A stretch of DNA of 63,940 bases, filler included, from an uncultured Methanosarcinales archaeon (GTDB taxonomy: Archaea; Nanobdellota; Nanobdellia; Woesearchaeales; JAGLXL01): NCBI GenBank assembly GCA_964472345.1. It is 5 parts of 5 records of this genome, joined end to end, with 100 filler letters (N's around TTAATTAATTAA, not from the genome) between each part and the next. Parts side by side here need not be neighbours in the genome. Positions count along the whole stretch, not along the records: positions 55,300 to 63,940 come from CAYYLB010000055.1; 4 more parts are not named here. One strand, written 5' to 3'. Below the pieces are notes generated by a model. It did no database searches. It worked only from the letters and a program-made list of their open reading frames with translations, and was not told where the DNA came from. The position numbers were made by a program, and so were the translations under genes. Below, in pieces: positions 985-58,234 of the stretch (positions are counted from its first letter, which is position 1; the number at the start of each line of letters is the position of its first letter).

Positions 985-1539
985 ATGAACGTTGATTGCT
1001 CAAACTGAGTACATACTCCGCAGCTTGCTGCGATTTATAGTTACTCAGTTTGAGGCTTAAAAATCCCCACAGCTTGCTGTGGCTGGGATTTTTAATACAA
1101 GAAGCTTGAAATTTGGCATCTTGCGTATCACTTTGTCATGGACATCTATAAAGCCGTAGAAAAATTTCCGAAATTCGAAGAGAATAATATCACTTCTCAG
1201 CTGCGCCGTGCGGCAACGTGCCTGCCTCTGAATATCGCAGAGGGAAGTGGGGCACGCTCACCGCGGATTTTCCTCAACTATCTTATATTTGCGTACCGAT
1301 CCGTGCGGGAAACAGAAACGCTGCTGATGCTCAGCCGGGACCTCAACTACCTTCCCCAAACGAGGTATGAGGAACTGAATGGGAAGCTTGAGCTTTTTGC
1401 CAAGAAGCTTTATCGCTTTATGGATTACCTGGAGAACGACGTCATCAAAACAAAAAGAAAACGGGATCTCACCTTTTTCTTCCGCCAGCAGAAGGATGCA
1501 CTGATCGGGAAGCGGGAGGAGATGGACCGGTTGGCCTGA
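985..1539 (+). pseudogene. Four-helix-bundle protein (23S rRNA IVS-protein family) interrupted near its start by a twin-hairpin insert
   Basis: TATA-like AAAAGTATAAAA about 25 nt before ATG985. In-frame YKKLEIWHLAY...FPKFE...SQLRRAA...NIAEG resumes at 1096. The insert carries in-frame stops. Confidence 0.8.
997..1095. repeat. Twin-hairpin palindromic insertion
   Basis: 13-bp IR 999-1011/1042-1054 and 11-bp IR 1057-1067/1085-1095, each enclosing a CAGCTTGCTG palindrome. Confidence 0.85.
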
Positions 1540-56537: not shown

Positions 56538-57107
56538 ATGAGCTGCGCGTGCGGAAGGGAAGGTGAGCTCCAGCGTGGGAAGCAATCCTTCTGCATGAGC
56601 TGCTTTTGCGATCAGTTCGAGACGCGCGTGAAGAAGGCGCTGCGCCGGCGCGAGCTCAGGCGCGGCGAGCGCGTCCTTGCCGTCGGCGCTCTCGCAGCCC
56701 ATATTATCAGGAAGCTGGTACGCCTCCCCATTAAGCTCACGGTCGCCGACATGCCCAAGCACGGCTCCGGCACCACGATCACCGACTGGACTATGGACGA
56801 CGAGTGCGTCGCCTTCCTCGCATGGCTCGGCGGCGCCAGCGAGTTTATCCAGCACGAGCATGACATCCCTCTCTTGCTCTACGTCACCGACGAGGACGCT
56901 GCGCACTACGCCAGGCTCCATGGCCTCCCGTTCACCCCAAGGCGGAAAGACGCCATGTGGTGGAAATTCCTCCGGACGTTTGATGATCATCCCGAAATGA
57001 AGCGCAACCTGCTCAGGAACATAGGGGAGCTGCGGGAGCTGCTTCGCGAAAAAGGGCATTTCTCAGCACAGCAAAAAGAAACCATCATGGCGGATCGCGC
57101 AACATGA
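56538..57107 (+). CDS. Protein with TtuA/Ncs6-like N-terminal Zn finger and no intact PP-loop
   Basis: CACG...FCMSCFCDQFETRVKK; no SGGKDS motif. Confidence 0.55.
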   Translation: MSCACGREGELQRGKQSFCMSCFCDQFETRVKKALRRRELRRGERVLAVGALAAHIIRKLVRLPIKLTVADMPKHGSGTTITDWTMDDECVAFLAWLGGASEFIQHEHDIPLLLYVTDEDAAHYARLHGLPFTPRRKDAMWWKFLRTFDDHPEMKRNLLRNIGELRELLREKGHFSAQQKETIMADRAT

Positions 57108-58234
57108 AGATGAAGACAAGCCTGATTCCTCCAGCAGTAATAGCAAATTGCAAAAATTTACAAACTTTTTACTTGCAATTTGCTATTCTAGCGAATCTCG
57201 CAAATGTTTGGTTATTAACGAGATTCGCTATAATTCCGCTTCTTATCCTGTTGCTTCTCCTCACCGGCTGCTCCTTCCCGCCCCGGGAAAACCTTGCCGC
57301 AGCCGCCGCCTCCCTCATCCAGGACCATGGCACCATCACCGTCCACTTCTGCCCTCAGGAAGCCTGCGAGCAGCTCACGCTCGACTTTATTGCAGATGCA
57401 GGTGAAACGCTCCACTGCGCCCTGCACGACCTCAACCTCGAGAGCCTCGGCAGCCTCCTCGAAGAGAAAGCGGCAACGATAGACGTCAAGCTCGTCATGG
57501 ACGACCATTATATCAAGAAGGCGCCCAGCGTCCCCGTCGTTGCCGATTCGAGCTACGGGCTGATGCACAACAAGTTCTGCGTTGTTGACCAGCGCAAGCT
57601 CTTCACCGGCAGCATGAACCCCACGCTGCGCGACACGGCGCGGAATAACAACAATCTGCTTTTTATCGAGTCCCCCATCATCGCGCACTGGTACGAGCAG
57701 GAATTCGAAGAGCTCTGGAACAGGGAGCGCAGGGGAGGCGCCAACCGCGGCACCGTCCTGCTCGAAACTATTCCCGTTGCCGTGTACTTCTGCCCGGATG
57801 ACGGCTGCGCCGACAAGGTCGTGCGCGAATTGCGCAAGGCGCAGCGCTCCATCCACTTCATGACATTCAGCTTCACGCATACCGGCATCGCAAACGTCCT
57901 CCTCACCAAGCACGACGCAGGCATTGAGGTGCGCGGTGTCTTTGAAAAGACGCAGCTCAGCGAGCACAGCGTCTTTGACGTGCTCAACTATCAGGGCGCA
58001 GACGTCCGCATCGACGGCAACCCCACCAACATGCACCACAAGGTCTTCATCGTCGATGGGCGCTGCGTGCTCACCGGCAGCATGAACCCGACCGGCGGAG
58101 GCGACAGCAGGAACGACGAGAACCTGCTGATCATCTGCGACGAGTCCCTCGCGCAGCAGTTCGAGGAGGAGTTTGAGAAGGTGTGGGGGGAGGCGGTGAA
58201 TGCAGCAGGATCAGGGTCGGCAACTGACATCTGA
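57104..58234 (+). CDS. Phospholipase D-family (two HKD motifs) lipoprotein with an in-frame insert in its signal peptide
   Basis: MHNKFCVVD and MHHKVFIVD, TGSMN twice, lipobox LTGC. Confidence 0.9.
   Translation: MKMKTSLIPPAVIANCKNLQTFYLQFAILANLANVWLLTRFAIIPLLILLLLLTGCSFPPRENLAAAAASLIQDHGTITVHFCPQEACEQLTLDFIADAGETLHCALHDLNLESLGSLLEEKAATIDVKLVMDDHYIKKAPSVPVVADSSYGLMHNKFCVVDQRKLFTGSMNPTLRDTARNNNNLLFIESPIIAHWYEQEFEELWNRERRGGANRGTVLLETIPVAVYFCPDDGCADKVVRELRKAQRSIHFMTFSFTHTGIANVLLTKHDAGIEVRGVFEKTQLSEHSVFDVLNYQGADVRIDGNPTNMHHKVFIVDGRCVLTGSMNPTGGGDSRNDENLLIICDESLAQQFEEEFEKVWGEAVNAAGSGSATDI
57130..57237. repeat. Twin-hairpin palindromic insertion, 108 nt, AT-rich
   Basis: 15-bp IR 57139-57153/57173-57187, 12-bp IR 57189-57200/57219-57230, ATTCC direct repeat at 57125 and 57233. 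Confidence 0.85.

Follow-up and report, generated by a model that had tools for sequence, protein, structure and literature searches.

The 63,940-nt window analysed here (the whole stretch of DNA, five joined parts of assembly GCA_964472345.1) holds, on the part taken from CAYYLB010000055.1, a gene for a tandem-HKD lipoprotein of the PLD superfamily, whose signal peptide is interrupted in frame by a short AT-rich segment built of two abutting hairpins. This segment is very probably a non-autonomous miniature transposable element (MITE), moved in trans and tolerated as an in-frame insertion in the lipoprotein gene. The marks of a MITE were found together: i) the segment is small and non-coding; ii) its copies are dispersed; iii) its ends are terminal inverted repeats; iv) it is accompanied by a target duplication of fixed length. 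The twin-hairpin repeat represented at 57138-57233 is referred to below as family A, a new family within a known kind of element; it has terminal inverted repeats and a TNA duplication and was probably mobile recently. An archaeal 23S rRNA, of which the 3' end is present, opens the window, and the host is a Woesearchaeota-like (DPANN) archaeon. Its genome (G000) comprises 1.26 Mb in 120 contigs; C-numbers denote contigs of this genome and G-numbers other genomes of the same order.

Limits, copies and fold of family A

The family-A core is 90 nt long (57141-57230, TAGC...GCTA) and is bounded by a duplicated TAA (Table 1), with a net insertion of 93 nt or 31 codons. A first-pass annotation of this DNA had counted 36 inserted residues; the core plus the TAA duplication gives 31. 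When the copies were aligned with their flanks, similarity set in at 57138 and ended at 57233, while 57130-57137 was unique flank, and in four public runs the contigs carrying other copies diverged from the window at 57137/57138/57140 and at 57231/57233. The first-pass annotation had also placed the segment between ATTCC direct repeats. These repeats are present, 108 nt apart (57125-29 and 57233-37), but they are not the ends of the element, which the copies place at 57138 and 57233; comparing copies ruled out ATTCC as the target duplication and left it a coincidence. The interior had been described correctly: two perfect inverted repeats were recovered, one of 15 bp at 57139-57187 (arms 57139-57153 and 57173-57187, 19-nt spacer) and one of 12 bp at 57189-57230 (arms 57189-57200 and 57219-57230, 18-nt spacer), and the AT-richness noted for the insert is seen in a GC content of 0.33-0.35 across the element (100-nt windows) against 0.569 genome-wide.

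Eleven full-length copies of family A were found in this genome (on C55, C43, C1, C59, C46, C6, C35, C50, C89, C7 and C20), together with solo hairpins on C23/C68 and C39 and fragments on C67, C12 and C10. The full-length copies fall into two subfamilies, distinguished by paired changes in the stems. Those on C55 and C43 are identical at 96/96 nt, and the existence of identical copies suggests a recent jump. The C1 copy has the same 90-nt core as these two but is flanked by TTA..TTA instead of TAA..TAA; because identical cores carry different trinucleotides, the flanking trinucleotide is target and not element. Moreover, the 3-bp flanks match at 31 of 33 copies (30 with TAA or TTA and one with TCA; the two exceptions are one base off): all 13 loci scored in this genome have matching flanks (6 TAA, 6 TTA, 1 TCA), as do 15/16 copies from 16 other genomes and 3/4 in a further Woesearchaeota metagenome-assembled genome (MAG).

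Family A was detected in 24 of the 401 genomes sampled from the order, with identities of 72-86% and across many families, and in none of the 8 other genomes of its own family. Its most conserved 20-mer was found elsewhere only in contigs of a Candidatus Woesearchaeota MAG and had 0 matches in viral contigs. The terminal 14-mer had 48 occurrences in five genomes, compared with 4 for its reversed control. No Rfam family matches the element (best E = 0.44).

Longer variants occur in G103, where the element measures 142-145 nt with a palindromic module of ~50 nt at the junction of the units (contigs of that genome: C6:12178-12322, C15:8665-8809, C28:29445-29589 and C54:33547-33785; loci L151 and L152). 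One G103 copy has a different twin-hairpin element nested in a loop. In several G103 contigs the sequence sets in 127 nt within the repeat, apparently through assembly breaks; such contig ends were considered as the mark of a full-length insertion sequence and rejected, for they are the 142-145-nt variants of the same small element.

The core is made of two hairpin units (Table 1), of which unit 2 is an inverted, diverged copy of unit 1. Both outer ends of the family read TAGYRAAT inward (TAGYRAAT / ATTYRCTA), and the two units share a further block, nGAAC, at 22-25 nt from either end, through which their loops are complementary: here GTTTG in unit 2 (57206-57210) can pair with CAAAC in unit 1 (57161-57165). 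The loop of unit 1 also holds a run of five T (T5; 57166-57170). Folded as single-stranded DNA, the 96-nt block reaches -26.1 kcal/mol (z = -8.25), a value equalled by 0 of 200 shuffles, and the element with its flanks folded as RNA gives z = -5.13.

Pairing is kept throughout the family. Across 25 distinct family-A sequences, 92.6% of cells are paired, compared with 30-44% when the partners are slid; both sides have changed at 15/32 pairs, and none of 500 shuffles matches the observed covariation, although kinship among the copies inflates such figures. In particular, 93.2% of cells are paired in helix 1 (both-side changes at 5/13 pairs), 97.3% in helix 3, which is the stem of unit 2 (6/12 pairs), and 83% in the loop-loop helix (4/7 pairs). 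In a DNA palindrome, such covariation may reflect a protein that binds symmetrically, or intra-palindrome repair, and not selection on the fold. Single units were also found alone with a duplication of their own (C23/C68 and C39 in this genome, and C15 in G103); the family-A twin can thus best be regarded as two minimal hairpin elements joined head to head. Stops occur in the majority of frames in most copies, and the 90-nt core has no coding capacity.

The twin-hairpin build extends beyond family A. A scan for perfect stems of at least 10 bp with loops of 3-30 nt and a gap of at most 6 nt returned 20 abutting twin hairpins in this genome and 0 in a shuffled copy. They form at least five sequence-unrelated families (A-E) of 87-105 nt. 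The first-pass proposal of a structure-defined class with further examples genome-wide is upheld by these numbers.

The lipoprotein gene and its lengthened signal peptide

The lipoprotein has the mitochondrial cardiolipin hydrolase/Zucchini and the Nuc endonuclease 1byr as its closest solved relatives, and a search of 41 genomes found a relative in 38 of them (this genome counted). As stated in the first-pass annotation, the frame stays open across the insert. The insertion target is a TAA shared by codons 12 and 13 of the signal peptide. Taking the 93 nt out brings residues 1-12 next to residues 44-376 and gives a lipoprotein signal of 25 residues. The 31 added residues have a mean hydropathy of +0.88 and include two basic and no acidic ones (net charge +2). 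With the insert in place, the hydrophobic core and the lipobox are intact and an Arg stands 16 residues before the lipobox Cys (hydropathy computed). This Arg could act as a new n-region, and the lipoprotein with its extended signal is presumably still exported; a weaker second hydrophobic stretch within the insert could disturb the topology.

The genome encodes Lgt (PF01790, 210.9 bits, C20:16524-17294, minus strand) and LspA (PF01252, 128.2 bits, C103:1335-1736, minus strand; C103 is a contig of this genome), both above cut-off. Because these bacterial-type enzymes are encoded, the lipobox is probably used. An L-T-G-C lipobox with its Cys behind a hydrophobic core, accompanied by Lgt and LspA, is the pattern of a bacterial-type lipoprotein, and lipidation is accordingly predicted. 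PF01790 and PF01252 are bacterial-type families in this archaeon; among 14 control genomes they were matched only in the 10 bacteria.

The inserted extension was seen in this copy of the gene only. In the 11 N-termini read from relatives, a short hydrophobic signal stands right at the start in every case, and 10 include a lipobox-like Cys; the conclusion would be the same without genome G008, the source of one of them. Among metagenome relatives, 70 of the 80 loci returned were parsed: Met and Cys are 13-29 residues apart in 31 of these 70 (and 40 in one, counted from an upstream Met), and the remaining parsed loci have uncleaved-looking hydrophobic starts or are cut off. The longer open N-termini of two metagenome loci (L093 and L108) are unrelated in sequence to the insert. 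Thus neither the 11 N-termini nor the 70 parsed loci carry the insert or an extension of its kind, which answers the concern that orthologues might share one. The best metagenome relatives are 40-55% identical, too distant for comparison at the nucleotide level.

Contigs assembled from four runs (X1-X4) agree with the window across the insertion. An X1 contig of 1035 nt covers 56908-57700 with zero differences, and contigs of X2-X4 cross one or the other junction; these runs are groundwater metagenomes of one study, possibly including the source sample, and are not independent support. A joint skipping the element was absent from the contigs of the four runs, contigs being prone to drop rare variants. 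Each of the four runs also has a contig (2501 nt in X1, with a depth of up to 59.7 in X2) whose match is limited to 57138-57172, the first 35 nt of the segment, before unrelated sequence follows; this contig might represent a longer relative, or else the autonomous element in another community member. At the first HKD motif (window 57550-57600) contig depth is several times higher, owing to conserved sequence of other community members that maps there and not to a repeat.

Table 1. Features of the inserted element, the lipoprotein gene and the other twin-hairpin families (positions in the window unless a contig is given)
Feature	Position	Strand	Basis or remarks
Left target duplication TAA	57138..57140	.	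matching trinucleotide on both sides at 31/33 copies
Hairpin unit 1, 13-bp stem, 19-nt loop, outer end TAGCAAAT	57141..57185	.	inverted repeat, fold, alignment pairing
Junction TTC between the units, 3 nt	57186..57188	.	T-W-C in the family alignment, shortened to 2 nt in part of the copies
Hairpin unit 2, 12-bp stem, 18-nt loop, outer end ATTCGCTA	57189..57230	.	inverted repeat, alignment, fold
Right target duplication TAA	57231..57233	.	same basis as the left one (31/33 copies)
Tandem-HKD PLD-superfamily (Nuc/Zucchini-like) lipoprotein gene, 376 codons including the insert	57104..58234	+	open reading frame; PF13091 PLDc_2, 4.8e-38, two stretches
Original gene start ahead of the insert (codons 1-11 plus base 1 of codon 12), with basic n-region and onset of the hydrophobic stretch	57104..57137	+	unique flank, absent from other copies
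Rest of the original signal peptide: hydrophobic core, lipobox L-T-G-C; Cys56 codon 57269-57271	57234..57271	+	open reading frame, hydropathy
Upstream open reading frame of 189 codons, no Pfam match	56538..57107	+	its stop and the lipoprotein start codon overlap (ATGA)
Family B copy, 105 nt	992..1096 (C31)	.	between ATG 986 and the first residue of the 23S_rRNA_IVP-domain gene; in-frame stop
Family C, five copies flanked by TA	C19:11334-11424, C24:3273-3362, C49:6342-6431, C54:7922-8010, C67:2785-2873	.	twin-hairpin scan
Families D and E	C13:18135-18225, C38:7547-7636; C7:12368-12458	.	twin-hairpin scan

Mobilization and competing explanations

The proposed course of insertion begins with a transposase supplied in trans, which would make a 3-nt staggered cut at T-N-A (mostly TAA or TTA). 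Joining of the element, whose core consists of two related hairpin units of ~42-45 nt in inverted arrangement with TAGYRAAT ends facing inward, would duplicate the target trinucleotide. In the present case the cut would have fallen on the TAA across codons 12-13; the 93 nt are free of stops in this frame, the gene stays open, and the 31 residues gained, which are mildly hydrophobic, separate the basic N-terminus from the intact hydrophobic core and lipobox. Oligo-T termination operates in archaea, and on that basis the T5 run might also lower transcription by the archaeal polymerase. PIF/Harbinger elements, relatives of bacterial IS5, are typified by a 3-bp duplication of 5'-TWA-3' (PMC4482050, PMC2213677). 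The enzyme would therefore belong to the DDE class and be IS5 / PIF-Harbinger-like, judging from the 3-bp TWA duplication. DDE_Tnp_1 occurs in 14/24 carriers of family A and in 122/377 non-carriers (Fisher p = 0.013), a weak hint at most among related genomes.

Several observations weigh against this account of the element as a MITE moved in trans. No full-length insertion sequence with the same ends was found in this genome and five carriers, a weak absence in fragmented assemblies; no pair of termini lies 0.5-3 kb apart in the five carrier genomes; and none of the six genomes examined yielded a transposase with matching ends. DDE_Tnp_1, DDE_Tnp_4, DDE_Tnp_1_2 and DDE_3 all lack a match in this genome, where searches with PF01609, PF13359, PF13586, PF13358, PF07282 and PF01541 returned nothing usable, and the DDE_Tnp_1 genes of four other carriers are not bordered by family-A termini. 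To our knowledge, IS5 and Harbinger ends do not start with TAG. Furthermore, hairpin formation itself may matter, because the stems keep their pairing through both-side changes and plain transposase binding needs no such upkeep.

The first of the competing explanations, which we regard as unlikely, is a structure-defined superfamily of twin-hairpin elements of ~90 nt in Woesearchaeota, moved by an unrecognised enzyme, with the lipoprotein copy as a reversible allele that changes export or, through the T5 run, transcription. Its grounds are the existence of at least five unrelated families, the nesting of elements in loops, and the stems and loop complementarity kept by both-side changes. If it were true, the enzyme could be supplied by a host, a virus or a new protein family, and the element could leave precisely through the TAA duplication.

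Movement by a Y1 (HUH) enzyme of a hairpin-dependent single-strand element, either IS200/IS605-derived and palindrome-associated or REP/REPIN-like, is less probable still. In its favour, compensatory changes preserve the hairpins, Y1_Tnp is represented in this genome by a single gene (C75:854-1318, 90.9 bits) and DDE by none, and Y1_Tnp is present in 12/24 carriers versus 115/377 other genomes (p = 0.068, a hint at most among related genomes). REP/BIME/REPIN repeats with their RAYT (Y1) resemble family A in their short hairpin units, often in inverted pairs and mostly behind genes, and in the presence of a Y1 gene here. However, as far as we know, elements of the IS200/IS605 type insert without target duplication and without terminal inverted repeats, and REPs, too, come without target duplication and are tied to the RAYT gene that they flank. 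Family A, in contrast, has inverted repeats for ends and a 3-bp duplication at nearly all of its copies; the DNA flanking the Y1 gene shares nothing with it; and Y1 is absent from half of the carriers, including G330 (95% complete, 10 contigs, 13 termini). The Y1 gene itself (minus strand, locus L029) is of IS200 type with 154 codons and GC-rich palindromes upstream, and is the only transposase family detected in the genome.

The first-pass annotation had suggested that such elements target gene starts and could switch export or expression. The 14 family-A loci of this genome, placed against open reading frames and Pfam matches, do not bear out the targeting: the lipoprotein copy is the only one within a gene 5' end, two loci are in divergent upstream spacers (C7 and C39), one is between tandem genes (C43), and 10/14 are behind stop codons or between convergent open reading frames. 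On C6 the duplicated TAA doubles as the stop codon of an open reading frame, on C46 the last codons of a short open reading frame extend into the element, and on C59 the element lies at two overlapping open reading frames, neither of which has a Pfam match. Moreover, none of 16 foreign copies lies in a frame of at least 100 codons that continues on both sides. This distribution fits a preference for T-N-A in AT-rich DNA, which within a genome of 57% GC means spacers and stop codons, and not a targeting of gene starts.

A reversible switch of export or expression by a class of elements aimed at gene starts is accordingly very unlikely. Five unrelated families do have the twin-hairpin build, copies of two of them stand at gene 5' ends in the window (57138-57233 and 992-1096), and precise excision through the duplication is possible for MITEs of the PIF/Harbinger type (PMC4561436). 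Yet, beside the positions of the copies, the family is not kept stop-free and an empty allele was not seen in the contigs of the four runs. The window copy is open in 2/6 frames; an open in-frame insertion is therefore an unremarkable outcome, likelier to be tolerated and to persist. Nothing in the data shows a regulatory role or a switch.

There is only a slight chance that the hairpin pair is an NTS/SRM repeat recognised by GIY-YIG single-strand nucleases (Ssn). The likeness lies in the build, since NTS/SRM repeats are abundant short hairpins around genes and are often paired (PMC11893778), but the units of family A lack a CGTC-type flank, and the NTS/SRM motif is absent from the family-A alignment. 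Furthermore, GIY-YIG (PF01541) has no match in this genome or in G330; G103 does have a small GIY-YIG gene, but family-A termini do not border it. Removal of the insert from the transcript in the manner of an archaeal bulge-helix-bulge intron, which would leave a normal protein, can be practically dismissed: the host is an archaeon and the segment is strongly structured as RNA, but the two 3-nt bulges four pairs apart are not at the junctions in the predicted minimum-energy and centroid folds, Rfam offers no match, and the copies are mostly intergenic with target duplications, which argues for insertion at the DNA level.

Known elements and the other twin-hairpin families

Under the MITE reading, family A is closest to the Tourist-type PIF/Harbinger and IS5-family MITEs, which are likewise small, non-coding, multi-copy elements with terminal inverted repeats and a 3-bp duplication of an AT-rich T-W-A target (PMC4482050, PMC2213677). 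It differs from them in four respects: i) no matching transposase was found for family A in the genomes searched; ii) its ends begin with TAG; iii) it consists of two self-folding units and not of one long fold-back; iv) one of its targets is TCA. MITEs fused in frame to host genes are known, the Rickettsia palindromic elements (RPEs) being an extreme case, in which a palindromic repeat of ~100 nt is translated as extra residues of a conserved protein (PMC10969869). RPE insertions are mostly in frame, whereas for family A this holds for 1/27 full-length copies, and the family is not kept stop-free.

Archaeal MITEs have been catalogued in Sulfolobus, Halobacterium and others. According to a census that covered 8220 archaeal genomes, 20% of these contain MITEs, 88.9% of the elements are intergenic, and a Woesearchaea genome, with 105 per Mb, is among the densest; the available part of that census does not describe a twin-hairpin build or a TNA duplication (PMC11602168). 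In the literature on MITEs in DPANN we found no description of family A, and a prior listing is possible, the sequence lists of the census not having been compared.

The case bears on several wider matters. Mobile repeats are active even in the small genome of an ultra-small archaeon, and the insertion suggests a tolerance of such additions in that part of an export signal which is cleaved off. For annotation, an N-terminus extended in this way is not to be taken as a new domain, and TAGYRAAT ends combined with a TNA duplication provide a simple rule for masking family A. Of wider value are the enzyme that mobilises twin-hairpin elements and the reason for the conservation of their stems.

The second insert in the window, which the first-pass annotation placed at 997-1095 for comparison, belongs to family B. 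It is indeed unrelated in sequence and twin-hairpin, and it is also multi-copy; its limits are 992-1096 (105 nt), and the frame from ATG 986 meets a TGA inside it, which prevents read-through. Because of this TGA, the 23S_rRNA_IVP gene (986-1539) now probably starts at 1138, 13 residues short; its Pfam match extends to profile position 1 with 1099-1137 added (103.3 bits) but not without that stretch (86.7 bits). Further family-B copies lie at C8:19792-19896, C70:443-598, C98:2913-3065 and C35:3321-3471. The family has two hairpins, and inverted ends and a duplication were not seen in it. Three of its copies hold different inserts of 45-50 nt exactly in the GCTTGC loop of one hairpin; the C70 and C98 inserts seem to be relatives placed in opposite orientation, and no other copy of the C70 insert was found in the genome.

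Families C, D and E measure 87-91 nt. The family-C copy on C67 is nested within the loop of a family-A unit, and families D and E begin with TAGCGAAG and TAGTAAAT, respectively, sharing the TAGYRA head with family A.

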